A stretch of DNA of 64,000 bases. Source: a virus. Below are positions 40,777 to 56,361 of the stretch, one piece after another. Where the stretch lies: positions 2,458 through 66,457 of the IMG/VR virus record IMGVR_UViG_3300025880_000014; one strand, written 5' to 3'. The notes beneath the pieces were generated by a model. The model was given only the letters and a program-made list of their open reading frames with translations, was not told the origin of the DNA and searched no databases. How positions within the stretch are numbered: the stretch's first letter is position 1; each line of letters begins with the position of its first letter. The position numbers were made by a program, and so were the translations under genes.

Positions 40777-41370
40777 TTATTTGTAATGTCCTCCTCCTAG
40801 CCATAAGACAAAAGATTTTCTAGTACCTTTAGTTACGGGTTTAACTGAGTGTAACATATAACTTGGAAATAAGACTACATTTCCTTTTCCTCGAGGAGCG
40901 GTCAATACATTTGTATCTAGAGATTCTCCACCTAGCCAAAAGCATAAATCTCCACCTTCGTATTCATTACTATCAGACAATTGAACAGTAATAGATACCT
41001 TTCTAATAGATAAATTCTTATCTCCAACGTCTTGGTGCCAATCATATTTACCAAACTCAGACGCTTCATATTCAGTATATTGAATTAGCTCAGGAGCAGT
41101 ATGTAAATCGAAATTCCATAGGGTTTGATTTGCTTCAGTTGCCATGGCAATTAATTTTTCATAAAGCCATGCCCATTCTTCGCTCTGTGGAATCCATTTA
41201 ATATTAGATTTTCTGTCTTCTGTTTCTCCACCTTGAGTTTCTGCTCGAACGTATTCAATATTAGCAACCCCTTGCTCAATACTTCTTAATTCTTCAGCTG
41301 AAAATCCTTGATCAAACCAGTAATACTGTTGAGCTTCGTTTTGTTTTGGTTCAAATGTAAAATTATTCAT
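40777..41370 (-). CDS. 2OG-Fe(II) dioxygenase (prolyl hydroxylase / PKHD-like)
   Basis: YDWHQD...RKVSITVQLS...YEGGDL...LFPSYMLHSVKPVTKGTRKS, giving HxD...H...R. Confidence 0.9.
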   Translation of the reverse strand: MNNFTFEPKQNEAQQYYWFDQGFSAEELRSIEQGVANIEYVRAETQGGETEDRKSNIKWIPQSEEWAWLYEKLIAMATEANQTLWNFDLHTAPELIQYTEYEASEFGKYDWHQDVGDKNLSIRKVSITVQLSDSNEYEGGDLCFWLGGESLDTNVLTAPRGKGNVVLFPSYMLHSVKPVTKGTRKSFVLWLGGGHYK

Positions 41371-43216
41371 CTTCTCTATATGTTATATTTACTGCACCTT
41401 CTTCTTCACCAAATCTAGATCTTGCGTTAATAGGCCATTGTGGATCCTCTTCATATGCCCAATCATGCTGACCTAATTCTTCAAATCTTTCTTTAATTCT
41501 TTCATTATATCTTGAAGCGATTGTACGTGTTCTTCTTTGTATATCTGCTCTAGATAGATCATGTGTATTTCTATGACCTTGATTACTATATAAAAATTGA
41601 ATATAGCTTAACTTAGGTATCTTACACATGATAGTGTTTAAGAATGTTCTAATAATTAATTCGTAATCATCAACAACTGTTAAACTTCTATTATGTCCTC
41701 CGATTGCAAAGTATGTAGATCTTCTCCACGCTCTAATGTGATTAGGAACTCCAACAATGTGTCTAATTGTTTTTGGATTAATATTCTGTTGATTTGCAGG
41801 ACTTAGCATTCTACCTTGATATTCTTCTTCTCTATAATTACCATATCCTAATGCAAAACCAGGACCGTATTTTTGATTTTCCCATTGTTCATTTACTTCT
41901 GCAGTATCACCGTAAAAGAATCCGCATTCAGGGTGTTTTTGTGCGGCGTTATGTAAATCCTGTGCGCATGTTACTGCGAGTAAATCATCGTGATCTAGTT
42001 CTGCGATAATATATCCTCTAGCCATTGCGTTTGCTCTCCACTTGACCTCTCCGATAATCCCACCTGATTTTTCTCTAAAATCGTATAGCTTAACTCTAGG
42101 GTCATTTGCTGCAATCTGCTCGGCAATCTTAAGTGTTTTACCACCATCAGTTGAATCGTTCATTAATACCCATTCCCAGTTGTCATACGTTTGAGCAGCG
42201 ACTGAGTTATATGTGTTTATTAACTTTTCACCTGTGTTATATATTGGAGTTGTAAAAGATATCATGCTATGATCGTCCATATTTGTCGGATCTAACATTG
42301 CATTTTCAGAAACATTATACGCAATATCTCCTACATTTTTTAAATCATTATCATTATCTATATTGATCCATTTTCTCCTAAATTGAAGAGGTAGTTTTGA
42401 TAGATATCTAAAATCAGAAGAACTCTTTCCTCGAGTTACTATTGCATCTGGTTTAAAACTGGATATTTTTTTTCTAATATCAGTATCATCCTTTGCATAT
42501 TTAACCTCTAAGTTGTCATCCTCGTAATCAAGTATTTTAGTAGTTTTCATTACTGGTTCTCCAGGTCCTATATATAAAATCCTAGGTAGTTTAGGTGTTG
42601 ACACTTTTTCTAATTCATTGTAATATGAAAGAATTTCATTAATCCAAACGAATGTATCTGGGTGGTTCTTATATACTTCTTCGATAAAGTAACCATCTGC
42701 TGCATAATCTGCTGTGAAACCATATTTTTCAAAAAGCTCTGATCTAAATAATATTTGAGCTATGTCTGTTTTTCTGAAACCAGTAGATTCTGGAGTAGAT
42801 TCTCTGTATTTTAATCCGGTAAAATCTTTACCATCAACTGCTTGTCCAACCATTATGATTTTCTTTTCAGAATTTACAGGTAGCATTACGAAATCCTCGA
42901 CTCTTTGATAAAATTCAGGATGCATTATATTGTCGTCATCTAATAAATAAAACCACGAATGATCTAAGCTCCTTATTAGACTGGTTGTTTCAGGGTACAT
43001 CATCCCGCCATGTTGTCCTTTAATAAAATGTATTGTTGTATTTGACTGATCTAAAATAGATAATAGATTCGCATCAATATCCTTCAGAGCACCTGTGTCA
43101 AACATAATGTGCCAATGTACCTCTACTCCTCTTGTTTTAGAAGTATCGAATACAGTTGGTTGTATTTTTAATAAATTAGATGTTCTAGTACATCTTGTGA
43201 TTACGTTAATTTTCAT
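41363..43216 (-). CDS. Tandem GT-A (GT2-like) glycosyltransferase, two catalytic domains
   Basis: N-domain FYLLDDDN and ADYAADG; C-domain SFTTPIYNT, WEWVLMNDST, ELDHDD, VVDDYEL. Confidence 0.85.
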   Translation of the reverse strand: MKINVITRCTRTSNLLKIQPTVFDTSKTRGVEVHWHIMFDTGALKDIDANLLSILDQSNTTIHFIKGQHGGMMYPETTSLIRSLDHSWFYLLDDDNIMHPEFYQRVEDFVMLPVNSEKKIIMVGQAVDGKDFTGLKYRESTPESTGFRKTDIAQILFRSELFEKYGFTADYAADGYFIEEVYKNHPDTFVWINEILSYYNELEKVSTPKLPRILYIGPGEPVMKTTKILDYEDDNLEVKYAKDDTDIRKKISSFKPDAIVTRGKSSSDFRYLSKLPLQFRRKWINIDNDNDLKNVGDIAYNVSENAMLDPTNMDDHSMISFTTPIYNTGEKLINTYNSVAAQTYDNWEWVLMNDSTDGGKTLKIAEQIAANDPRVKLYDFREKSGGIIGEVKWRANAMARGYIIAELDHDDLLAVTCAQDLHNAAQKHPECGFFYGDTAEVNEQWENQKYGPGFALGYGNYREEEYQGRMLSPANQQNINPKTIRHIVGVPNHIRAWRRSTYFAIGGHNRSLTVVDDYELIIRTFLNTIMCKIPKLSYIQFLYSNQGHRNTHDLSRADIQRRTRTIASRYNERIKERFEELGQHDWAYEEDPQWPINARSRFGEEEGAVNITYREDE

Positions 43217-43227
43217 TTAATGTGGTT

Positions 43228-44160
43228 TTATTGTTCAATGTCAAAAAAGAACATGTGGAAAAATCTTGCATTATCAATTGCATCTCCAAAGTATTCAGTT
43301 GCTGCGTGTAATTGCGATGAGTTAAATATTACTAGTCTATTATATACGTTTCCAATATCATCAATCTTTTCAAATTGAGTTCCATCGTAGAAGTTCATTT
43401 CTTTATTAGTACCTCTGAATGTATCTACGTATTCATCTCCCATTCTAGATTCTTGACCCGGAAACGATGAAATTCCTGTAACTTTACTTCGATACATTGC
43501 AGTTCCTGTTTGTGGAGGTGCGTCTGGGGTTAAGTAAACCATTGCAGCATACATTTGACTATCTACATGGTATACTATAGGTTGATCTGCTGTACAGAAT
43601 TGAAATACACCATTAGCGTATCCACCATTGTTCCAGTTTGTTATTTTTCTACCTAATACTTCTTCAAGTTTTTCCTTAGTGCCATCTATAATATATCTAG
43701 ATTGAGATCTTTGTCCTTTGTGATATTTAGACGGTAAAAACTCTAAATTATTCATAGCATATTCTCTGACTAAATCAGGATCTGCATAGAAATTATCAAC
43801 AACAATAACGTCTTTATCTGTTTTATTAAATCCAGATGAAGAAGCTGGCCATTTTGCTAAAGAAATAAGTTCAACTGGCGCTGCATTATTTAAACTAATC
43901 CATAGTTTTTTCGTAATATCTTCGTGTAGAATCATTATATTAAATCCTACATTTTCCGGAATTGTTCCTTTATAAAAAGAAAAAACATCTGGCCTTTTTT
44001 CCCATTCAATATTCAAGGATTTTCCATCTAATAGAACGTCAGTTACTATAGTATCTTTAGTTATTGAACCTACCCATCCTCTTGCGTACCAATATCCATC
44101 GGTGCCTTTTTTAATAGAATCAATGTTTAATTTTACATTGTTTAAATTAGTTTCGTGCAT
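43228..44160 (-). CDS. 2OG-Fe(II) dioxygenase-like protein (DUF6445-like) with an extra N-terminal domain
   Basis: VVDNFYADPD.VRE, YHVD...AAMVYLTP...GT, YNRLVIF...LHA, R.FHMFF. Confidence 0.75.
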   Translation of the reverse strand: MHETNLNNVKLNIDSIKKGTDGYWYARGWVGSITKDTIVTDVLLDGKSLNIEWEKRPDVFSFYKGTIPENVGFNIMILHEDITKKLWISLNNAAPVELISLAKWPASSSGFNKTDKDVIVVDNFYADPDLVREYAMNNLEFLPSKYHKGQRSQSRYIIDGTKEKLEEVLGRKITNWNNGGYANGVFQFCTADQPIVYHVDSQMYAAMVYLTPDAPPQTGTAMYRSKVTGISSFPGQESRMGDEYVDTFRGTNKEMNFYDGTQFEKIDDIGNVYNRLVIFNSSQLHAATEYFGDAIDNARFFHMFFFDIEQ

Positions 44161-44213: not shown

Positions 44214-44244
44214 AAAAAAAAGGATCCCAATGGGATCCTTTTTT
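44214..44244. terminator. Bidirectional intrinsic terminator A8-GGATCCC-AAT-GGGATCC-T6
   Basis: Perfect stem flanked by A and T tracts, after collagen A. Confidence 0.85.
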
Positions 44245-44265: not shown

Positions 44266-46860
44266 TTATATTTGCCCTTTGAGGCCTCCACCAGCGCCTC
44301 CGGTTTGCGTAACTAATCCATTAACGAATGTGACATTGTGTCCCGTACTAAAGTAAATGGTTTCACTAATCCCACTAGTTGGTCCGTTAGTTCCTTGAGA
44401 TCCTCGAGGACCCTTTACTCCCGCAGGACCAAGTTGGCCCGTATTTCCAGTAAATCCTTTATAACCTTGTGCTCCATTGGTACCTTTAGCTCCTGGAGCT
44501 CCTTTAGCTCCTTGAGAACCATTATTACCCTTAAGACCCTGTGGCCCTCTTGGTCCGGTGCTACCATTTAGTCCTTTATAACCTGTTGGTCCTACTAGCC
44601 GTGCTCCTTGTGGTCCTCTATATCCAACTCCTAGACTACTACCAGTAGTTCCTTGGAATCCTCGAACTGTTCCAGTTGGTCCTTTATAGCCGGTAAGTCC
44701 TTTAAATCCTGTATAGCCTGTAATAGTAGATCCAGTGGTTCCTTTTAAACCCTGTGGCCCGACATATCCTTGAACTCCTTTTGGACTTGCTCCAGTATTA
44801 CCTTGTGCTCCTTGAGGTCCAGTATATCCTTTTGCTCCTCCTGGTTGTGATCCTTTAAGACCTTGATCTCCCTGAACACCAATAAATCCAATATACCCCT
44901 TAGGCATTGCTCCTTTAGCACCCTGATTTCCTTGGGCTCCTTGTGGTCCTCTATGTCCAGTTGGAGAATCTCCAATCGGTCCGGTGTTACCATTTAGTCC
45001 TTTATAACCTGTAACTCCTTTATATGAGGTTGGACGTACACCTTGAGTTCCCTGTGGTCCTCTTGGTCCAGTGCTTCCGGTTGGTTGTGCTCCTTTATCT
45101 CCTTGAGTACCTTGTGCTCCTTGTGGTCCTCTTGATCCTCCGGGCTGTGCTCCTTTATTTCCTTGGAATCCTCTTGGTCCTGTTACTCCAATAAATCCTT
45201 TTGGCTGAGCTCCTGTATATCCTTGAACTCCTTGAGCTCCTTGAACTCCTCTAAATCCTGTTGGATTTGCTCCTTGGAAACCTCTTTCTCCATTAATTCC
45301 TGTGTAACCGGTTGCTCCTGTTGGTGAAGATCCTTGAACTCCTCTATAACCAGTTGCTCCAATAAATCCAATATACCCCTTTGGCATTGCTCCTTTTAAT
45401 CCTTGGAAACCTCTTGGTCCTGTTGGTCCAGTTGGCGAAGTTGGTCTAGCTCCTTGGAAACCTCTTGGTCCCGTATTTCCAGGATCACCGATAATTGCGT
45501 CATATGCAGGTCCTGTTGGTCCTGTATATCCTGTTGGTCCGTTTGGTCCTATGTGTCCTTTTGGACTTGCTCCGATATTACCCTGTGCTCCTTGAGATCC
45601 TTTAAGACCAGTATATCCCTTTGGACTTGGTCCTGTATATCCTGTTGGTCCGTTTACTCCTTTATCTCCTTGGAATCCTCTATTAGTACTTCCTTGAGAT
45701 CCTCTAATACCCTGTACTCCTTGAAACCCTCTTGGTCCTGTTGGTGAATTACCAATAGCTCCTTGAAAACCTCTTGGTCCAGGATCTCCTGTTTGAGCAG
45801 CTGGCGTACTTCCAGTATTTCCTTGAAAACCTCTTTCTCCGTTTAATCCTTTGTCTCCAACTGGATTTGCTCCTTGTGCTCCTTTAAAACCAGGATAACC
45901 TTCAGCTCCTTGAAAACCTTTTGGACTATTTCCAACGTCTCCTTGAAAACCTCTATCTCCGTTTAATCCTTTGTCTCCAACTGGATTTGCTCCTTGTGCT
46001 CCTTTAAAACCAGGATGACCTTCAGCTCCTTGGAAACCTTTTGGTGAATCACCAACATTTCCTTGAAAACCTCTGTCTCCAGTTTGTCCTACTTGTGCAG
46101 TTTGAGTTGAACCCTGTGCTCCTTTTAGTCCGGTAGCACCCTGTGAACCTTTATGTCCTTTTTGATTTGTACCTGCAGAACCTTGAAATCCTACATGTCC
46201 AACAAAACCAGTTGCTCCACCTGGATTTAAACCCGTAGTACCTTGATCTCCTTGAAAACCTCTGAAACCAGTTGCTCCTGTTAATTGATCTCCCTGAAAC
46301 CCTCTTGGTCCATCAGGTCCAATATCACCAACGTAAGCTGTAATTACATTACCCTGTGATCCAGTTGAACCTTGATCTCCTTTTATTCCTTTAAGACCAT
46401 TAGTTATTTTACCTGCATCTCCATCTGTTCCTTGATTTCCTCTAAAACCTTCTGGTCCTTCTGGTGAATCTCCAATTGTTCCTTGGAATCCTCTAAAACC
46501 TTGATCAGCAGTACCTTTATTTCCTTGAAAACCTCGATCTCCTTGAAAACCTATATTACCTTCATAACCTTGATGTCCTTGTGGACTGTCTCCTTGAAAA
46601 CCTCTGAAACCAGTATCTCCAACAGGTTCTAAACCTGCAGATCCTTGAACTCCTTTATCTCCTTGAAAACCTCTATCTCCTTGAAAACCTTGAGCTCCAA
46701 CAATACCTTGAAAACCTTGATCTCCTTGAAAACCTTGAGCTCCAACAATACCTTGGTCTCCCTGGTCTCCTTTCAATTCAGGATAGTTATTAGCATCAAA
46801 GTTACCAGTATGTAAGGGAGTTTCTCCCCCTACAAGTGATCCTGTATTTAATTTTGCCAT
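44266..46860 (-). CDS. Collagen-like fibre protein, chain A (864 aa), with periodic interruptions
   Basis: Gly-X-Y from aa 31 to about 828, with 34 one-residue-short interruptions. Confidence 0.9.
45841..46080. repeat. 120-bp tandem duplication in collagen A (40 aa = 14 triplet equivalents)
   Basis: 45841-45960 vs 45961-46080: 110/120 identical by manual comparison. Confidence 0.9.
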
Positions 46861-46900
46861 GTTATTTTTATTCTTTTTTTATATATAATTAACTTATTGG

Positions 46901-49558
46901 TTATTGGATAAATCCGTTTGAAACAATATAGCCTGTTCCATTATCGTCTGTGAAAAATCCGTTAAAACCATTACCTATAGATCCACTTCCATGATAACCT
47001 TGTGGTCCTCTTGGTCCTGTTGGTCCATATCCGACTGGTCCCATACTTCCAGTTAATCCTCTTGCTCCTGCTGTTCCAGCTCCTCCGCCAGATCCTTGGA
47101 ATCCTCTTGGTCCTGTTGATCCATTTGCTCCTTGATATCCGACTGATCCTACTATCTGATTTCCTTGTGCTCCTGTTGCACCCTGGGCTCCTGGTATTCC
47201 TGTATATCCTTGAGGTCCTCTTGCTCCTTGAACTCCGTTTGGTCCTTTATATCCTGTTGGTCCATTATTACCTTGTGGTCCTCTTGACCCCGTTGGTCCT
47301 GTTGAACCTGTAGCTCCCTGTGGTCCCGTATTTCCTTGTGATCCCTGTGGACCAGTTGGTCCTTTATAACCTCCACCTCCGGCGGATCCGGATCCTCCTT
47401 GATATCCTCTTGGTCCTGTATTACCAGTGGCTCCTTGTGCACCTTGGAATCCTGATATTCCTTTGTTTCCAGTGGCTCCTTGTGTTCCTCTATCTCCCAC
47501 TGCCGAAGTAGTTCCAGTAAGTCCTTTATTACCAATAAATCCAGTATAACCTTTTGCTCCAGTTACTCCTTGTGCTCCAGTTGATCCCTGTGCTCCTTGA
47601 TTTCCTTTAGCTCCAGTATTTCCCTGTGCTCCTGTTAATCCAGTTGCTCCTTTTAATCCAGTATATCCAGTTACTCCCTGTGCTCCTTGATTTCCTTGTG
47701 ATCCGTTAACTCCTGTTTTACCAATAAATCCAGTATAACCTGTTGCTCCAGTTCCTCCTTGTGAACCGTTAACTCCAGGATAACCAGTTGGTCCCGTTGG
47801 TCCTTGATTTCCAACGGCTCCAGTTCCTCCAGTTGCTCCTTTAGCTCCAACAAGTCCAGTATATCCTTTTGGTCCGGTTGCACCCTGTGCTCCTGTAAAT
47901 CCAGTAGGTCCTGTTGAACCTTTAGCTCCCTGTGCTCCTTGTGCTCCTTTTACATTAGTAAATCCTTGAGGTCCCGTTGGCCCTTGAGGACCGGTGTTAC
48001 CAACCGCAGATGTTGTTCCTGTTAATCCTTTAAAACCAGTAGCTCCTTTTGCTCCTTGTGCTCCTTGTACTCCTGTTAATCCTTTAAAACCAGTAGCTCC
48101 TTTTGCTCCTTGTGCTCCTTGTGCTCCTTTAGGTCTTTGAGATCCCTGAGGTCCCTGAGCTCCTTTTGCTCCTTGAGAACCTTTATTACCAGTAGCTCCT
48201 TTAGCTCCTATTGCTCCCTGGAATCCTCTTTCACCAAGTGAACCTTGATTTCCGATAACACCCTGGGGTCCAGTTGATCCCTGTGCTCCTTGATTTCCTT
48301 TTACTCCTTCAAATCCTGTTGAACCAACAATTCCTATATAACCAGTATCTCCTTTGAAACCGGTAAATCCTGTAGATCCTTTAGCACCCTGTGCTCCAGT
48401 AACTCCTTGGAATCCCTTTGGTCCCGTAACTCCTTGTGGTCCTCTTCCACCAGCTCCGCCAGTTAATCCTTGATAACCAGTTGCTCCAATATTACCTTTA
48501 GCTCCTTGATTTCCTTTAGCTCCAGTATCTCCTTTAAGTCCGTTAGATCCTGTAATACCAACATACCCAGTAGAACCTGTAGCTCCTGTTGCTCCTTGAT
48601 AACCAGTTGCTCCAATATTACCTTTAGCTCCTTGATTTCCTTTAGCTCCAGTATCTCCTTTAAGTCCGTTAGATCCTGTAATACCAACATACCCAGTAGA
48701 ACCTGTAGCTCCAGTATCTCCTTGATAACCTGTTGCTCCAGTAGATCCTTGCGCTCCTTGAGATCCAGTACTTCCTTTATCTCCTAAAAGACCTTGAAAT
48801 CCTCTTTCACCAGGATCTCCTGGTAAAGAATCCGAAGCAGTTGCTCCTTTAAATCCTTTTTGTCCTGTTGAACCTTTAGCTCCCTGAGATCCTTTAACTC
48901 CATTAGTTCCAGGTAATCCTTCAAAACCGGTAGATCCTTTAGATCCCTGTGCTCCATCAACTCCGGTAAATCCTTTTAAACCGGTTGAACCTTGTGATCC
49001 TTTATTTCCTTTAACTGATGTTGCTCCTTTTGCTCCTTGGAATCCTCTTTCTCCAGTATCTCCTTGTGTACCTTGTGTACCTTTAATACCGACAGAACCT
49101 TGACTTCCTTGAAAACCTCTTTCTCCGTTAATTCCTTTTACACCCTGTGCTCCAGTAAAACCTTGGAATCCTTGAAGTCCAATAGAACCTTGATCGCCGA
49201 CTTGTCCTTGATAACCATTAGAACCATTAGGACCTAATATACCTGTTATTCCTTTTTCTCCTCTAATTCCAGTAGCTCCGGTAAAACCTTGAAGACCAGT
49301 AGATCCTTGATTACCTTTACTACCAGTAGATCCTTGATCACCTTGACTACCTTGATAACCCCCAGTTCCAACGAAACCTTGATTACCTGTATCACCTTGA
49401 TGACCGACACTACCGTCGGATCCAACAGATCCTTGGGATCCTTGAGATCCCAATTCACCGTTCGGTCCAATAAGCTGAGGAAAATTCGTGCTATTAAGGT
49501 TACCACTGTGTAATACGAGATTACCGTCTAACGTAGTACCTAAGATAAATTTTGCCAT
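46901..49558 (-). CDS. Collagen-like fibre protein, chain B (885 aa)
   Basis: Gly-X-Y from aa 31 to about 859 (277 triplet equivalents). Confidence 0.9.
48017..48124. repeat. 54-bp tandem duplication in collagen B ([15 protein letters not shown])
   Basis: Identical run starting at 48017 and 48071. Confidence 0.8.
48471..48722. repeat. 126-bp tandem duplication in collagen B (14 triplets)
   Basis: 48471-48596 vs 48597-48722: 123/126 identical. Confidence 0.9.
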
Positions 49559-49593
49559 GTTATTATTTTTATATTTTTATTTGTTTTATATTG

Positions 49594-52467
49594 TTATCCA
49601 ATATTTACACCGTTTTGGATAGTACGTACTCCACGCGTATGAAATATTTGACCGCTAAATCCTCCGGTTGCATTATTACCTTGATAACCCTGTGGTCCTC
49701 TTGCTCCGGTACCAGATCCACCCTGGACTCCTTGATAACCTTGTGGTCCTCTTGCAGGTGCAGGCTGTCCTCCAGCGCCTTGATAACCTTGAGGTCCTGA
49801 TGTTGCGGAAGCTCCTTTTGCTCCTTGTGTTCCTTGTGCTCCTGTTGCTCCTTTTAAACCTTGAGGTCCTCTTGGTCCTGCACCACCATTAAGTCCTACA
49901 TAACCTTGTGCTCCACGTGCTCCAACGTTTCCGTTTGCACCTTGTACTCCTTGAGGTCCTGTATATCCTTGAACTCCTTGAGCTCCCTGGGTTCCTTGAG
50001 CTCCTCTTACAGTACCTGCAGGTCCAATAAAACCTTTAAGTCCGGTTGAACCTTGTGGTCCTCTTACTCCCTGTGGCCCTGTTGGTCCTGTATATCCTTT
50101 TGGTCCTGTTGCTCCTTGGAATCCTCTGTGACCTGGCGCACCACTATAACCTTGTGGTCCAGTTAGTCCTTTATAACCCTGTACTCCTTGAGTTCCTCTT
50201 GCAGCCGCAGTTCCCTGTGGTCCAGTTATTCCTTTATCACCAGTAGCTCCTTGTGGTCCTCTTGGTCCAGTAGATCCTTTAAAACCTGTATCTCCTTTTG
50301 CTCCTTGTGCTCCTCTAATTCCTTGTGGTCCAAGATCTCCAGTAGGTCCAGTTGCTCCTTTAGGTCCGATATATCCGATATATCCTTTTGGTCCAGTTGC
50401 TCCTTGAGGTCCTTTAATTCCTTTTGCTCCAGTTGCTCCTTGATTACCCTTTGGTCCAGTTATTCCCTGAACTCCTTTTGCTCCTTGAACACCAATTGTT
50501 CCCTGAGCTCCTTGAGGTCCAGTATTTCCTTGAGGTCCTCTAATAGTTCCAGTACTTCCGGTTGCTCCTTGAAAACCTTTATTACCAGTAGCTCCGGTTG
50601 CTCCTTGATTACCTTTAATTCCTTGGAATCCTCTGTCTCCAGTTGCTGCAGTAGATCCTTTAAGACCTTGTGCTCCTCTAACTCCTTGATTTCCTTGGAA
50701 TCCTCTTGGTGCAGCAGTTCCCTGTGCTCCAGTATTTCCTTGAAATCCAATCTTTCCAGTTGGTCCTAAATCACCAATTGCTCCGGTATTTCCTTGAACT
50801 CCAATAAATCCTTTATCTCCTTTAATTGCACTTGGTGCGATATATCCAGTATCTCCCTGGAATCCTCTGTCTCCAGTTGCTCCTTGATTACCCTGTGCTC
50901 CTGTTACTCCAGTATATCCTTTTGCACCAGTAGTACCTTTAGCTCCTTGGAATCCTCTTGGTCCGCTAGATCCTTGATGTCCTCTTTCACCAGCATCTCC
51001 TTGAACTCCTTTTGAACCTTGTGGTCCAACTGCTCCAACAGATCCCTGTGCTCCTATTATTCCAGTGTTTCCTTGAACTCCAGTTGCTCCAGTTGCTCCT
51101 TTATCTCCAGTTGCTCCTTGAGGTCCTGTATAACCTTTTGCTCCTTGTGCTCCAAGAGGTCCTGTTAAACCTTTAGCTCCTTGATCTCCTTTGAAACCTT
51201 GATCTCCTTTAAGACCAACATTTCCAATAACACCTTGGTTTCCTTGAAAACCTCTTGGACCAGTGTTACCCTGTGCTCCAGTTGATCCTTTTAAACCTTT
51301 AGCTCCTTGATCTCCTTTGAAACCTTGATCTCCTTTAAGACCAACATTTCCAATAACACCTTGGTTTCCTTGAAAACCTCTTGGACCAGTGTTACCCTGT
51401 GCTCCAGTTGATCCTTTTAAACCTTTAGCTCCCTGTGATCCTTTAAAACCTCTTTCACCAATGATACCATCGGCTCCAGTAGATCCTTGATAACCTGTTG
51501 CTCCAGTAGATCCTTGTGTTCCTATTACTTTATTAATACCAGCGTCTCCTTGAGTTCCTTGATTTCCTTGAAAACCTCTGTCTCCTACGGGTCCGTTAAT
51601 ACCTGTTGTTCCTTTAATTCCTTTGTCTCCTTGGAATCCTCTGGCTCCATTTGAACCATTATTTCCTTTTGCTCCTTGAGGTCCTGTAAATCCAACGTCT
51701 CCTTGTGCTCCTCTGTTTCCATCAAGTCCTTTATAACCTGTTGCTCCAGTTGAACCTTTAAAACCTTGATCTCCGATTACTCCATCAGAACCTTGATCAC
51801 CTTTATAACCGGTAACCCCTTGATTTCCCTGAACTCCAATAGGTCCAGTAACTCCTTTGTTTCCGATAGATCCTTGGAATCCTCTGGCACCGTCTACGCC
51901 TGTTAAACCCTTAGTACCTTGAGTACCTTTAGTTCCTTGGTTTCCTTGGAATCCTCTTTCACCTTGATTTCCAACAATACCTTTAGATCCTTGAAATCCT
52001 CTTTCACCTTTAGCCCCAGTAGTACCTGAAATACCAATATCTCCTACTAATCCTTTACTACCACGTGATCCTTCACTACCAGTATCTCCTACTAATCCAG
52101 TATTTCCGAGAGAACCTTTATCTCCACGAAAACCTTCATCACCGGTATTTCCTTTTACTCCTTTTAAAGAAGAGAAATCACTAGGTGTAAAATTACCAGG
52201 TCTTAATATTAGATTGCCACCGATTGTTGAATCAGCCTTAAAGCTTCCGCCACCATCAAAAATACCACCCGCTATAATTGCGGAATCAGTACTCCTAATA
52301 GTTAACACATTCCCCGCAGGGAATGTGTTTAACTCTTCTAGGTAAGACGGCGTATAGACGATAGCTGAATCTTGGTCAATTCCTGCTCTGTTCGAGTTTT
52401 CATCGATCTGAGCCTGGAATTCTCCGGTAGATTGTACTAGTTTTATCGCTATTTTATTAAATGCCAT
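49594..52467 (-). CDS. Collagen-like fibre protein, chain C (957 aa) with a 102-aa N-terminal domain
   Basis: Gly-X-Y from aa 103 to about 932 (276 triplet equivalents). Confidence 0.9.
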   Translation of the reverse strand: MAFNKIAIKLVQSTGEFQAQIDENSNRAGIDQDSAIVYTPSYLEELNTFPAGNVLTIRSTDSAIIAGGIFDGGGSFKADSTIGGNLILRPGNFTPSDFSSLKGVKGNTGDEGFRGDKGSLGNTGLVGDTGSEGSRGSKGLVGDIGISGTTGAKGERGFQGSKGIVGNQGERGFQGNQGTKGTQGTKGLTGVDGARGFQGSIGNKGVTGPIGVQGNQGVTGYKGDQGSDGVIGDQGFKGSTGATGYKGLDGNRGAQGDVGFTGPQGAKGNNGSNGARGFQGDKGIKGTTGINGPVGDRGFQGNQGTQGDAGINKVIGTQGSTGATGYQGSTGADGIIGERGFKGSQGAKGLKGSTGAQGNTGPRGFQGNQGVIGNVGLKGDQGFKGDQGAKGLKGSTGAQGNTGPRGFQGNQGVIGNVGLKGDQGFKGDQGAKGLTGPLGAQGAKGYTGPQGATGDKGATGATGVQGNTGIIGAQGSVGAVGPQGSKGVQGDAGERGHQGSSGPRGFQGAKGTTGAKGYTGVTGAQGNQGATGDRGFQGDTGYIAPSAIKGDKGFIGVQGNTGAIGDLGPTGKIGFQGNTGAQGTAAPRGFQGNQGVRGAQGLKGSTAATGDRGFQGIKGNQGATGATGNKGFQGATGSTGTIRGPQGNTGPQGAQGTIGVQGAKGVQGITGPKGNQGATGAKGIKGPQGATGPKGYIGYIGPKGATGPTGDLGPQGIRGAQGAKGDTGFKGSTGPRGPQGATGDKGITGPQGTAAARGTQGVQGYKGLTGPQGYSGAPGHRGFQGATGPKGYTGPTGPQGVRGPQGSTGLKGFIGPAGTVRGAQGTQGAQGVQGYTGPQGVQGANGNVGARGAQGYVGLNGGAGPRGPQGLKGATGAQGTQGAKGASATSGPQGYQGAGGQPAPARGPQGYQGVQGGSGTGARGPQGYQGNNATGGFSGQIFHTRGVRTIQNGVNIG
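51165..51432. repeat. 126-bp perfect tandem duplication in collagen C (14 triplets)
   Basis: 51165-51290 vs 51291-51416: 126/126 identical, plus a 16-bp third partial copy. Confidence 0.9.
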
Positions 52468-52521: not shown

Positions 52522-55500
52522 TTAATCGAATGAGAATGTAATGTCTCCATTTGCATCTCTTTCAATTCTTGCCGTTGGGTTACCGTTAGCATCTTCGAAA
52601 TAAATAGCTTTATCATTGGCGATTGTTATTGAATCTCCATCAAATGCTCCAGTTTCTCCTTGGAATCCTTGATCTCCTTTAGCTCCAGTTAAACCCTGTG
52701 CTCCAGTATCTCCTTTGAAACCTTGATCTCCTTTGAATCCTTGGTCTCCTTTAGCTCCAGTTAAACCCTGTGCTCCAGTATCTCCTTTGAAACCTTGATC
52801 TCCTTTGAATCCTTGGTCTCCTTTAATACCTTGAATACCATCGTCTCCTTTAGTACCTTGAACTCCTTGAATACCTTGAATACCATCGTCTCCTTTGAAT
52901 CCTTGATCTCCTTTTAAACCAGTATCTCCTTTGAAACCTTGATCTCCTTTAAGACCTTGAATACCTTGAATACCATCGTCTCCTTTAGTACCCTGAACTC
53001 CAATAACTCCTTGTTCCCCTTGGAAACCTTGAATACCTTGCTCTCCAGTATCTCCTTTGAAACCTTGATCTCCTTTAAGACCTTGAATACCTTGAATACC
53101 ATCGTCTCCTTTAGTACCTTGAACTCCTTGAATACCTTGAATACCATCGTCTCCTTTGAATCCTTGATCTCCTTTTAAACCAGTATCTCCTTTGAAACCT
53201 TGATCTCCTTTTAAACCAGTATCTCCTTTGAAACCTTGATCTCCTTTAAGACCTTGAATACCTTGAATACCATCGTCTCCTTTAGTACCCTGAACTCCAA
53301 TAACTCCTTGTTCCCCTTGGAAACCTTGAATACCTTGCTCTCCAGTATCTCCTTTGAAACCTTGATCTCCTTTGAAACCTTGATCTCCTTTAGCTCCTAA
53401 AGTACCTGATTCTCCTTGGAAACCTTGATCTCCTTTAAGACCTTGAATACCTTGAATACCATCGTCTCCTTTAAGACCTGTATCTCCTTTAAGACCAGTT
53501 TCTCCTTGGAATCCTTGATCTCCTTTAGCTCCAGTATCTCCCTGGAAACCTTGAATACCTTGTTCTCCTTGATCTCCTTTAAGACCATCAATACCTTGGA
53601 AACCTTGATCTCCTTTAGCTCCAGTATCTCCTTGGAAACCTTGATCTCCTTGGAAACCTTGGAAACCTTGATCACCCTGTGCTCCAATTTTCATTGGTGT
53701 GAAAGATACAATAATTTGACCATTTGCTGATGGGATGTTCGCTGCGTACGCGTCGTTAGTCATGTGTTCCGCAGAAGAAGTACCACCATCGTAATTACTG
53801 TTTGAACCACCAACTCTTACCATGTCTACTCTAAGATCTCCTCTTCCGGCAGAACCTAAAATAATGGAAGCGTTTGATGCTTCATATAAATGATATTTAC
53901 TAGAGTCTCCATTCTTAGAAACTTTTACGTAAATTCTATCGTAACCATCAGATACCATATTTGTAAATAAAGAATTCATGTGGTTGATATCTTGCAATCC
54001 GTTTGCGATATCTGAGAACCACCATTCTTGAGAACCTCCATAAATAAATGAAGATGCTTCAGTATGTCCTAATTGATTAACGTTTGTGTATTTATTATCT
54101 GAGAAGGTAATACCATCATAAACAACTGATAAACCACCAGCGTTACCTACAGTACCTTGGAATCCTTGATCTCCTTGATCTCCTTTAAGACCTTGGAAAC
54201 CTTGATCTCCTTGGAAACCTTGGAAACCTTGATCTCCAGTTTCTCCTTGAATACCTTGTTCTCCTTGATCTCCTTTAAGACCAGTATCTCCTTGGAAACC
54301 TTGATCACCTTGGAAACCTTGATCACCTTGGAAACCTTGGAAACCTTGATCTCCTTTAGCTCCTAATGTACCATCAACTCCTTGGAAACCTTGATCTCCT
54401 TTAGCTCCAGTATCTCCTTGGAATCCTTGATCTCCTTTAGTACCCTGAACTCCGATAACTCCTTGTTCTCCAGTATCTCCTTTGAAACCTTGAATACCTT
54501 GCTCTCCAGTATCTCCTTTGAAACCTTGATCTCCTTTAAGACCTTGAATACCTTGCTCTCCTGTATCTCCTTTAGTACCCTGAACTCCAATAACTCCTTG
54601 TTCCCCTTGGAAACCTTGAATACCTTGCTCTCCTGTATCTCCTTTAAGACCAGTTTCTCCTTGGATACCTTGGATACCTTGTTCTCCAGTATCTCCTTTA
54701 AAACCTTGATCTCCTTTAAGACCTTGAATACCTTGAATACCATCGTCTCCTTTAAGACCTGTATCTCCTTTAAGACCAGTTTCTCCTTGGATACCTTGGA
54801 TACCTTGTTCTCCAGTATCTCCTTTAAAACCTTGATCTCCTTTAAGACCTGTATCTCCTTTAAGACCAGTTTCTCCTTGGATACCTTGCTCTCCTGTATC
54901 TCCTTTAAAACCTTGATCTCCTTTAAGACCTTGAATACCTTGTTCTCCAGTGTCTCCTTTGAATCCTTGATCTCCTTTAAGACCAGTTTCTCCTTGGATA
55001 CCTTGGATACCTTGTTCTCCAGTATCTCCTTTAAGACCAGTTTCTCCTTGGATACCTTGAATACCTTGTTCTCCAGTATCTCCTTTAGTACCCTGAACTC
55101 CAATAACTCCTTGTTCCCCTTGGAAACCTTGAATACCTTGCTCTCCTGTATCTCCTTTAAGACCTGTATCTCCTTGGAATCCTTGATCTCCTTTAAGACC
55201 AGTTTCTCCTTGGATACCTTGGATACCTTGTTCTCCAGTATCTCCTTTGAAACCTTGATCTCCTTTAAGACCTTGAATACCTTGTTCTCCAGTATCTCCT
55301 TTAAAACCTTGATCTCCTTTAAGACCTTGAATACCTTGCTCTCCTGTATCTCCTTTAAGACCTGTATCTCCTTGGAATCCTTGATCTCCTTTAAGACCAG
55401 TTTCTCCTTGGATACCTTGTTCTCCAGTATCTCCTTTAAGACCAGTTTCTCCTTGGATACCTTGAATACCTTGTTCTCCAGTATCTCCTTTAGTACCTAC

Positions 55501-56361
55501 AGTACCTTGAACTCCGATAACTCCTTGTTCCCCTTGGAAACCTTGAATACCTTGTTCTCCAGTGTCTCCTTTGAATCCTTGATCTCCTTTAAGACCAGTT
55601 TCTCCTTGGATACCTTGGATACCTTGTTCTCCAGTATCTCCTTTAAGACCAGTTTCTCCTTGGATACCTTGAATACCTTGTTCTCCAGTATCTCCTTTAA
55701 AACCTTGATCTCCTTTAAGACCTTGAATACCTTGTTCCCCAGTATCTCCTTTAGTACCTACAGTACCTTGAACTCCGATAACTCCTTGTTCCCCTTGGAA
55801 ACCTTGAATACCTTGATCTCCTTTAAGACCAGTTTCTCCTTGAATACCTTGTTCTCCTTGATCTCCTTGGATACCTTGGTCTCCTTGGATACCTTGATCT
55901 CCTTTTAATCCTTGATCTCCTTTAATACCTTGAATACCATCGTCTCCTTTGAAACCTTGATCTCCTTGAAGACCTTGATCTCCTGTATCTCCTTTAGTAC
56001 CTACAGTACCTTGAACTCCGATAACTCCTTGTTCCCCTTGGAAACCTTGAATACCTTGATCTCCTTTAAGACCAGTTTCTCCTTGAATACCTTGTTCTCC
56101 TTGATCTCCTTTAAGACCAGTTTCTCCTTTAAGACCAGTTTCTCCTTTGAAACCTTGATCTCCTTTAATACCTTGAATACCTTGTTCACCGGTATCTCCT
56201 TTAAAACCTTGATCTCCTTGAAGACCTTGATCTCCTTGAAAACCTTGAACCCCATCAATACCCTGATCTCCTTGGAAACCTTGATCTCCTTGTGTACCTT
56301 GATATCCGGATCCTTGATCTCCCTGAGGACCTGCGGTAGAAATATATGCTGAATATGCCAT
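52522..56361 (-). CDS. Collagen-like protein D (1279 aa): two Gly-X-Y tracts (about aa 11-741 and 893-1240) around a ~150-aa globular insert
   Basis: Built from GDQ/GFQ/GLK/GDT/GEQ/GIQ modules; almost Pro-free. Confidence 0.9.
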   Translation of the reverse strand: MAYSAYISTAGPQGDQGSGYQGTQGDQGFQGDQGIDGVQGFQGDQGLQGDQGFKGDTGEQGIQGIKGDQGFKGETGLKGETGLKGDQGEQGIQGETGLKGDQGIQGFQGEQGVIGVQGTVGTKGDTGDQGLQGDQGFKGDDGIQGIKGDQGLKGDQGIQGDQGIQGDQGEQGIQGETGLKGDQGIQGFQGEQGVIGVQGTVGTKGDTGEQGIQGLKGDQGFKGDTGEQGIQGIQGETGLKGDTGEQGIQGIQGETGLKGDQGFKGDTGEQGIQGFQGEQGVIGVQGTVGTKGDTGEQGIQGIQGETGLKGDTGEQGIQGETGLKGDQGFQGDTGLKGDTGEQGIQGLKGDQGFKGDTGEQGIQGLKGDQGFKGDTGEQGIQGIQGETGLKGDQGFQGDTGLKGDTGEQGIQGFQGEQGVIGVQGTKGDTGEQGIQGIQGETGLKGDTGEQGIQGIQGETGLKGDQGFKGDTGEQGIQGLKGDQGFKGDTGEQGIQGETGLKGDTGLKGDQGFKGDTGEQGIQGIQGETGLKGDTGLKGDDGIQGIQGLKGDQGFKGDTGEQGIQGIQGETGLKGDTGEQGIQGFQGEQGVIGVQGTKGDTGEQGIQGLKGDQGFKGDTGEQGIQGFKGDTGEQGVIGVQGTKGDQGFQGDTGAKGDQGFQGVDGTLGAKGDQGFQGFQGDQGFQGDQGFQGDTGLKGDQGEQGIQGETGDQGFQGFQGDQGFQGLKGDQGDQGFQGTVGNAGGLSVVYDGITFSDNKYTNVNQLGHTEASSFIYGGSQEWWFSDIANGLQDINHMNSLFTNMVSDGYDRIYVKVSKNGDSSKYHLYEASNASIILGSAGRGDLRVDMVRVGGSNSNYDGGTSSAEHMTNDAYAANIPSANGQIIVSFTPMKIGAQGDQGFQGFQGDQGFQGDTGAKGDQGFQGIDGLKGDQGEQGIQGFQGDTGAKGDQGFQGETGLKGDTGLKGDDGIQGIQGLKGDQGFQGESGTLGAKGDQGFKGDQGFKGDTGEQGIQGFQGEQGVIGVQGTKGDDGIQGIQGLKGDQGFKGDTGLKGDQGFKGDTGLKGDQGFKGDDGIQGIQGVQGTKGDDGIQGIQGLKGDQGFKGDTGEQGIQGFQGEQGVIGVQGTKGDDGIQGIQGLKGDQGFKGDTGLKGDQGFKGDDGIQGIQGVQGTKGDDGIQGIKGDQGFKGDQGFKGDTGAQGLTGAKGDQGFKGDQGFKGDTGAQGLTGAKGDQGFQGETGAFDGDSITIANDKAIYFEDANGNPTARIERDANGDITFSFD
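52650..53685. repeat. Low-complexity repeats (second collagen tract of D)
   Basis: Repeated ccttgaataccatcgtctcc and aaaccttgatctcc blocks. Confidence 0.85.
54150..56330. repeat. Low-complexity minisatellite of 9-bp-multiple modules (first collagen tract of D)
   Basis: Recurrent near-identical blocks such as ccttgatctcctttaagacc and ccttgttctccagtatctcc. Confidence 0.85.

Follow-up and report, generated by a model that had tools for sequence, protein, structure and literature searches.

The 64,000-nucleotide (nt) stretch of DNA analyzed here (the window; positions 2,458 to 66,457 of IMG/VR virus record IMGVR_UViG_3300025880_000014) comes from an uncultured marine jumbo phage and carries four consecutive minus-strand open reading frames for collagen-like proteins, D, C, B, and A. 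We conclude from sequence, at a probability of roughly 0.88, that the products of genes C, B, and A form one 1:1:1 heterotrimeric collagen triple helix, with chain D standing outside the trimer and serving as an internal control. Such an ABC helix had been proposed in an initial annotation of this DNA, and it is now supported by coupling between residues of the three genes, which appears only at the B to C, C to A, and A to B offsets. The cyclic order of the predicted strands, B, C, A, is shown by the same pattern.

A Lys in the Y position of a leading or middle collagen strand pairs with Asp or Glu at i+2 on the next strand, and for a Lys in the trailing strand the partner is at i+5 on the leading strand (PMC11923368). 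We parsed the rods by script in Gly register, assigning a unit of L residues to round(L/3) triplet slots (five residues, two slots; eight residues, three), and counted Lys at Y of slot i in one chain against Asp/Glu at X of slot i plus an offset in another. All nine ordered pairs of chains were scored, with distant offsets as background. Summed over ten loci (related loci are described below), Lys-Asp/Glu pairs peaked from B to C at +1 (147 versus 65.6, z 6.3), from C to A at +1 (133 versus 44.7, z 7.5), and from A to B at +2 (97 versus 34.1, z 9.8); the last offset had been derived from the first two peaks before it was computed. The remaining pairs and offsets, including B and C self pairs and the reverse pairs, gave z values of at most 3.4. 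Slot offsets of +1, +1, and +2 correspond to the i+2, i+2, and i+5 rule and hence to a leading, middle, and trailing stagger (PMC11923368). Taken alone, the window shows an excess of all three contacts (17/4.3, 19/3.7, and 9/1.2; z 6.2-7.7), and so does every clade with enough charged residues. A mutual-information scan of one locus per clade, involving no choice of residues, recovered the same three contacts (z 8.0, 6.4, and 7.6), with no signal for X-X, Y-Y, or reverse pairs.

Axial pairs of other kinds were also in excess: Arg-Tyr (171 observed versus 25.9 expected, z 21.6), Gln-Phe (279 versus 118), Lys-Asn (203 versus 89), Ile-Pro (108 versus 36.5), and Arg-Phe (65 versus 23.7). Both axial Gln-Phe pairs and N-to-C cation-pi pairs are recognized as stabilizing, and designers of heterotrimers have made use of them (PMC9599227, PMC12086834). 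When all 27 ordered trimers were scored in six clades using only the favorable pairs defined in the literature, B-C-A ranked first in each of the six; in one of the loci, L027, the top label was ACB, which by collar motif denotes the same chain types. For the window, B-C-A scored 159, the next best trimer 105, and homotrimers 47-70. In 5000 shuffles of triplets within chains the score averaged 61.1 +/- 5.6 and never exceeded 82, placing B-C-A at z=17.4. Along the window rod, cross-strand Lys-Asp/Glu pairs number 13, 8, 15, 4, 5, and 0 per successive sixth and are thus concentrated in the N-terminal half. This trend is opposite to that of human collagens, where about half of such pairs lie in the C-terminal quarter (PMC11923368), and may reflect folding from the N-terminal collars.

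The scripted parse agreed with the rod starts read by hand earlier (A aa31, B aa31, C aa103) and gave 277, 277, and 276 slots for A, B, and C, bearing out the claim of nearly equal rods. Every break listed in the initial annotation was recovered. All three chains (A/B/C) are interrupted at slot 70 (GTNQK / GATASDSLP / GINKVI), slots 147-149 (GPAYDAII / GSQRPK / GYIAPSAIK), slots 161-162 (GAMPK / GTTSAV / GTAAPR), slot 168 (GSSPT / GFTNVK / GSTAAT), and slots 217-218 (GAMPK / GTTSAV / GTAAAR); pairwise breaks are present in A and B at 49-50, in A and C at 238-239, and in B and C at 272. The significance attached to these coincidences held for B and C, 6 of the 8 breaks in B overlapping one in C (p=5e-5, permutation), but was weak within the window for A (B-A p=0.048, C-A p=0.13), because A is broken every seven slots and its breaks cover 32% of all slots. 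The part of the list that involves A is, then, partly trivial. B and C are mostly regular, their breaks being mainly 6-residue units that lack the middle Gly. Chain A has an exact 20-residue period from aa130 to aa710, made of five triplets and a 5-residue unit (consensus G-x-x-P-x) or of four triplets and an 8-residue unit.

The phase relation to A becomes clear across loci. Of the 141 B/C breaks inside the periodic zone of A, 112 overlap a break in A when the shift is 0, compared with 16-25 at off-phase shifts and 91-107 at shifts of 7 or 14, and B/C breaks are about four times commoner opposite A short units (83/592) than elsewhere (45/1314). The counting rule inherited from the initial annotation, by which 5- and 8-residue units stand for two and three triplets, was vindicated by the contacts, whose peaks exist only under that mapping: with the 5-residue unit of A taken as two slots, peaks reached 361 and 297, the medians being 133 and 111. 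The contact peaks vanish when A is placed against B and C by residue number or when its breaks are rounded down, and both alignments were rejected. In the window, the peak contact offset is constant along the rod wherever pairs are numerous enough. A constant mapping implies that register is restored after each A unit, so that five residues of A span six of B or C. By our estimate from a 0.286-nm rise, an A short unit would need about 0.34 nm per residue, near a fully extended chain, and we infer that the helix is locally loosened there. Such loosening would explain why Gly-less breaks of B and C occur mainly at these places.

Three separate homotrimeric fibers, AAA, BBB, and CCC, held at equal length by side-by-side bundling or by having the same distance to span, would also account for the matched rods. 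We consider this very improbable. In chain D, all 82 Y-Lys residues are followed by Gly-Asp/Glu, the self-complementary signature of a homotrimer, and in its single-gene relatives 61-100% of them are. In A, B, and C the self-complementary axial pairs of homotrimeric phage and prokaryotic fibers are absent: Gly-Asp/Glu follows 1 of 28 (4%), 3 of 40 (7%), and 7 of 47 (15%) Y-Lys residues, respectively, which is the chance level. Acidic X residues lie opposite a Lys of the predicted partner in 19 of 23 cases for A (a Lys of C), 17 of 28 for C (a Lys of B), and 9 of 17 for B (a Lys of A). Moreover, coupling at the strand offsets of a single helix, directional and cyclic, is not expected of fibers lying side by side. 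Nor is the phase-locking of breaks in slots but not in residues (overlap by residue coordinates is 52/107, i.e., chance), as fibers with an equal rise per residue would drift apart.

A mixed helix of another composition, for example two chains in an A2B-type arrangement with the third chain in a fiber of its own, seems to us equally improbable. The window breaks do agree more between B and C than with A, a point in favor of such an arrangement, but the B to C, C to A, and A to B contacts are about equally strong, and no two-chain ordered trimer in the window exceeds 105 in the scoring described above.

To obtain related loci we used the neighboring DUF6445 protein as bait, which yielded 62 viral and 52 metagenomic loci, with complete C-B-A sets in 11 distinct loci, the window included. 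Rods range from 161 to 279 slots, and the three chains are matched in 10 of the 11. Apart from the window, the slot numbers (A/B/C) are 262/263/262 in L003, 258/260/267 in L004, 257/261/253 in L075, 218/223/217 in L064, 185/183/192 in L006, 190/190/189 in L008, 190/191/189 in L072, 232/233/231 in L073, 162/161/161 in L027, and 263/279/278 in L066. Correlations of length between chains exceed 0.99 (locus-label permutation p<=1e-5, ignoring relatedness). Lengths that varied independently in homologous loci would have spoken for independent chains; they move together. L066 aside, A has 2 to 43 residues fewer than B, tracking the number of A short units, and differs from B by only 0-5 in slots. 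All three chain types co-occur wherever a contig reaches far enough, and other relatives have a D-type gene only. D-type genes range from 180 to 2026 aa (amino acids), independently of the length of A, B, and C. With the N-terminal domain of chain C as bait, no new viral contigs were found; a word-indexed protein search gave no matches, and an exhaustive search gave five, mostly fragments.

Changes in length are matched in place as well as in size. Between the window and L003 there is one gap per gene, of 40, 42, and 42 aa at A261, B274, and C345. Between L073 and L072 the indels are 120, 126, and 126 aa (A, B, C; slots 65-101), and between L003 and L064 about 123, 126, and 129 aa (slots 58-97). 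Indels of 14 or 42 slots thus recur at the same place of the rod in all three genes. The extra module of the window is a tandem duplication located at slots 80-112 in each chain, and the A, B, and C modules are unrelated in sequence.

It is improbable in the extreme that the layout is simply a legacy of common descent, the three genes being paralogues whose products are not physically coupled. The 30-residue collars and short C-terminal knobs are homologous among A, B, and C, but the rods are without in-register similarity: as noted in the initial annotation, they share no long identical sequence, and their in-register X/Y identity of 0.09-0.14 (A-B 0.088, A-C 0.130, B-C 0.141) is at or below the 0.146-0.161 of shifted alignments. 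Coordinated three-gene indels in at least three lineages, and cross-gene coupling that is directional and absent from reverse pairs, argue against this explanation too. The earlier caveat that shared ancestry could account for part of the co-location was not borne out, given the lack of in-register similarity and the joint changes of length. As a cause of the co-located breaks it was rejected, since in addition no 7-slot sequence periodicity is found in B or C. An in-register polyproline-II assembly other than the canonical triple helix would accommodate the departure of A from Gly-X-Y every 20 residues and the low imino-acid content, but is just as remote, the i+2, i+2, i+5 pattern being specific to a triple helix with one-residue stagger (PMC11923368) and the Pfam Collagen (PF01391) matches being strong (E 3e-67 to 2e-118: A 2.9e-67, B 1.7e-115, C 2e-118; that of D is strong too).

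Several observations weigh against the heterotrimer or limit its details. The assembled A gene of L066 is 14-16 slots shorter than its B and C. Allowing one extra slot at the start of the A rod, its contact peaks have normal offsets N-terminally; beyond the place of the module they lie at -12 and +15, displaced by exactly 14 slots. The fit of the downstream A sequence to B and C is that expected with one module absent, and the gene (L066:7414-9885) has one 40-aa module fewer than its B/C contact pattern requires. Module copies can be identical (40/40 in L001), which makes an assembly collapse plausible; collapse of identical tandem copies in short-read assembly is a likely cause, a very recent deletion being the alternative. 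Because of the exact 14-slot jump, L066 was rejected as a case for independent chains. Chain C is off by 6-9 slots in L004, L006, L064, and L075; some loci with a deviating C hold 11-residue loops or large inserts of uncertain slot value. The loci are mutually related and pooled counts therefore represent fewer independent observations than they suggest, though the single-locus tests stand alone. A, B, and C are all net positive (+30, +34, and +42), and complementarity of net charge between chains was accordingly rejected. The imino-acid content of all three is low, and the helix may not be stable without modification. Finally, the label "leading" assumes that the rods start level at the collars; the data fix the cyclic order only.

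We propose a 1:1:1 assembly of A, B, and C in a single triple helix of 277 triplets, with a length of about 237 nm. If the rods are level at the homologous 30-residue collars, B would lead, C would be the middle strand, and A would trail. Composition and register are encoded in about 200 cross-strand axial pairs along the whole rod (salt bridges of Lys with Asp/Glu, cation-pi pairs of Arg with Tyr/Phe, Gln-Phe, Lys-Asn, and Ile-Pro), with self-complementary Lys-Gly-Asp/Glu nearly absent from each chain. A contributes one residue fewer per seven triplets, each of its 5-residue units extending over the length of two B/C triplets. Opposite these units, preferentially, B and C lack Gly and, in relatives, take up inserted globular domains, the central Gly of B and C presumably becoming dispensable where the helix is loosened. 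The collars probably attach the fiber to the virion, and the C-terminal knobs of 25-39 residues may help trimerization. Predicting a complex of the chain ends on the C-terminal side (A 781-864, B 806-885, C 880-957) gave a score of 0.19, below the mark of 0.34, and is taken as evidence neither way.

One superhelical turn of a 7/2 triple helix comprises seven triplets. An omission once per turn might put the loosened sites, Gly-less breaks, and side domains on one face of the 160-240 nm rod, where they may act as hinges, sites of curvature, or docking points; the result would be a curved, hinged, or ruler-like fiber without counterpart among known collagens, an idea that we put forward tentatively and regard as rather doubtful.

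Some relatives carry additional domains. Mid-rod globular inserts of 157-185 aa (L006:5698-6225, L008:6421-6894, and L008:4736-5260; also in L064, L067, and L075) occur in orthologues of B or C, in one chain only, and several are in phase with A short units (slots 84 and ~168); one has a sub-threshold CBM_4_9 match. In a heterotrimer, such inserts would be single-copy side domains. Three A orthologues (L004:6927-9890, L006:7228-9510, and L075:6928-9891) are extended at the C terminus by a domain of about 190 aa, which starts with Cys, ends with THN, and appears Hint/intein-like, with Pfam matches below threshold; chain A of the window lacks it and has a Gly-rich tail instead. A distant three-chain set (L027:3735-8787; also L031, L086, and L087) encodes chains of 553, 540, and 564 aa with six 14-slot modules. 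At the same places, one chain of this set has a residue more (7-residue unit), one has a residue less (5-residue unit), and one is regular. Its gene order is unlike that of the window, the third gene being B-type and the second A-type by collar motif.

Coordinates of the window features are collected in the table. A single transcription unit seems to span genes C, B, and A, as the A/T-rich C-B (35 nt) and B-A (40 nt) spacers are without hairpins and a terminator-like hairpin follows A. The hairpin is a direct reading of the sequence and is absent from the listing of a consensus scan. No Pfam family besides Collagen was found in A, B, or C, and none on C aa1-105. The collagen of chain D is uninterrupted and highly repetitive; within the chain lies a single globular domain of about 139 aa (aa742-880). 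In other phages, D relatives are single genes of 1790-2026 aa, and their C-terminal non-collagen region bears, by eye, a resemblance to intramolecular chaperones (S74-like).

Table. Features of the collagen locus, in window coordinates
Feature	Position	Strand	Description
Chain D gene	52522..56361	(-)	1279 aa; outside trimer, internal control
Chain C gene	49594..52467	(-)	957 aa; inferred middle strand
Chain C N-terminal extra domain	52252-52467	(-)	aa1-72
Chain C collar	52162-52251	(-)	30 aa, aa73-102
Chain C collagen rod	49672-52161	(-)	aa103-932, 276 slots
Chain C C-terminal knob		(-)	aa933-957, short
Chain C tandem module	51166..51450	(-)	aa340-434, 42-aa unit, copies 42/42 identical, slots 80-111
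Chain B gene	46901..49558	(-)	885 aa; inferred leading strand
Chain B collar		(-)	30 aa
Chain B collagen rod	46982-49468	(-)	aa31-859, 277 slots, 8 breaks
Chain B C-terminal knob		(-)	aa860-885
Chain B tandem module	48467..48748	(-)	aa271-364, 42-aa unit, copies 41/42 identical, slots 81-112
Chain A gene	44266..46860	(-)	864 aa; inferred trailing strand
Chain A collar		(-)	30 aa
Chain A collagen rod	44377-46770	(-)	aa31-828, 798 residues = 277 slots
Chain A C-terminal knob		(-)	aa829-864
Chain A tandem module	45814..46080	(-)	aa261-349, 40-aa unit, ~2.25 copies, 37/40 identical, slots 81-111
Intrinsic-terminator-like hairpin	44214..44238	(-)	GGATCC, 5-nt loop, GGATCC, then eight T; directly 3' of chain A

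On the 3' side of the terminator, the minus strand at 40777-44160 encodes three proteins: the DUF6445 protein, a 617-aa family-2 glycosyltransferase, and a 197-aa 2-oxoglutarate (2OG)-Fe(II) oxygenase. The first of them has a match in the PHROG family 'minor coat protein' as well. Candidate modification sites in the rods are 28-47 Lys at Y per rod and many Thr. In a phage collection, neither the locus nor the N-terminal domain of chain C had a DNA or protein match to cultured relatives, and the DUF6445 protein matched cyanophage genes only, at 24-42% identity. The nearest relatives of the baseplate wedge gene of the window in that collection are those of an uncultured 462-kb phage and of Prevotella Lak megaphages; Tenacibaculum phages also match. 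The phage genome is represented by one contig of 71.6 kb. The locus was found in marine metagenomes of many independent studies, and pieces of it occur without a difference in independent marine runs from different studies (Logan contigs, fragmented at repeats). Metatranscriptome contigs of run X15 match A, B, and C in part, at ~93-96% identity, which hints that a relative is transcribed; carry-over of DNA is an alternative source of these contigs.

A, B, and C each have the long Gly-X-Y repeat that characterizes PF01391, and the three staggered strands of that family are indicated indirectly by coupling at i+2, i+2, and i+5 only. Equal rods, co-located interruptions, and a complementarity favoring one composition and register, as expected of an ABC heterotrimer, can all be read in these chains. 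C1q (chains A, B, and C) and collagen IV are built of three chains from clustered genes, with equal collagenous lengths and co-located interruptions. The phage locus is similar in having three distinct clustered chains, equal lengths, shared interruptions, and one register (the register rule and collagen IV alignments are in PMC11923368). In contrast to these systems, a Pfam search found no C1q head or NC1 in the phage chains. As no homologous chain-selection domain (C1q head, NC1, or NC2) was found, the likeness would be one of function and not of descent. Further differences are the phage origin, the near absence of Pro at Y, which leaves no hydroxyproline-type stabilization, and the strictly periodic one-residue omission of chain A. 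Designed ABC collagen-mimetic heterotrimers use the same types of axial Y-to-X' pairs and likewise avoid self-pairs (PMC9599227, PMC12086834, PMC12533406). They measure about 30 residues, whereas the phage rod is natural and about 830 residues long and also pairs Lys-Asn and Ile-Pro, of which we found no description in the literature.

Among prokaryotic and viral proteins, Scl1/Scl2, BclA, E. coli prophage EPclA, and phage tail fibers have similar Gly-X-Y rods rich in Thr, Gln, and charge, with non-collagen ends, and phage collagen-like proteins share the setting among structural genes (PMC8968730, PMC3368898). Such proteins are homotrimers (PMC8968730). A, B, and C differ from them in lacking a self-complementary signature and in being complementary between three genes; chain D is of the ordinary kind. 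Mimivirus, whose collagen is hydroxylated and glycosylated (PMC8968730), also has several adjacent collagen genes near 2OG-oxygenase-like and glycosyltransferase genes. The host of the present phage is, in contrast, a bacterium, and the phage has a baseplate wedge gene with relatives in Bacteroidota megaphages. Our literature search turned up no phage or bacterial collagen that is a natural heterotrimer, and we know of no mimivirus collagen shown to be a heterotrimer.

If the assignment is correct, it would be a natural heterotrimeric collagen outside animals, and mixed-chain collagen would not be an animal-only trait. The locus indicates that matched duplications of modules let three genes co-evolve in length. 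In it, peptide designers would have a long example from nature of the pair code that they use (Lys-Asp/Glu, cation-pi, and Gln-Phe) together with the new candidates Lys-Asn and Ile-Pro, and it could give a bacterial-type scaffold for recombinant heterotrimers of fixed register. It would also allow tests of how the triple helix tolerates Gly-less breaks and the periodic omission of one residue, which bears on the interruptions of collagen IV and on Gly-substitution disease.

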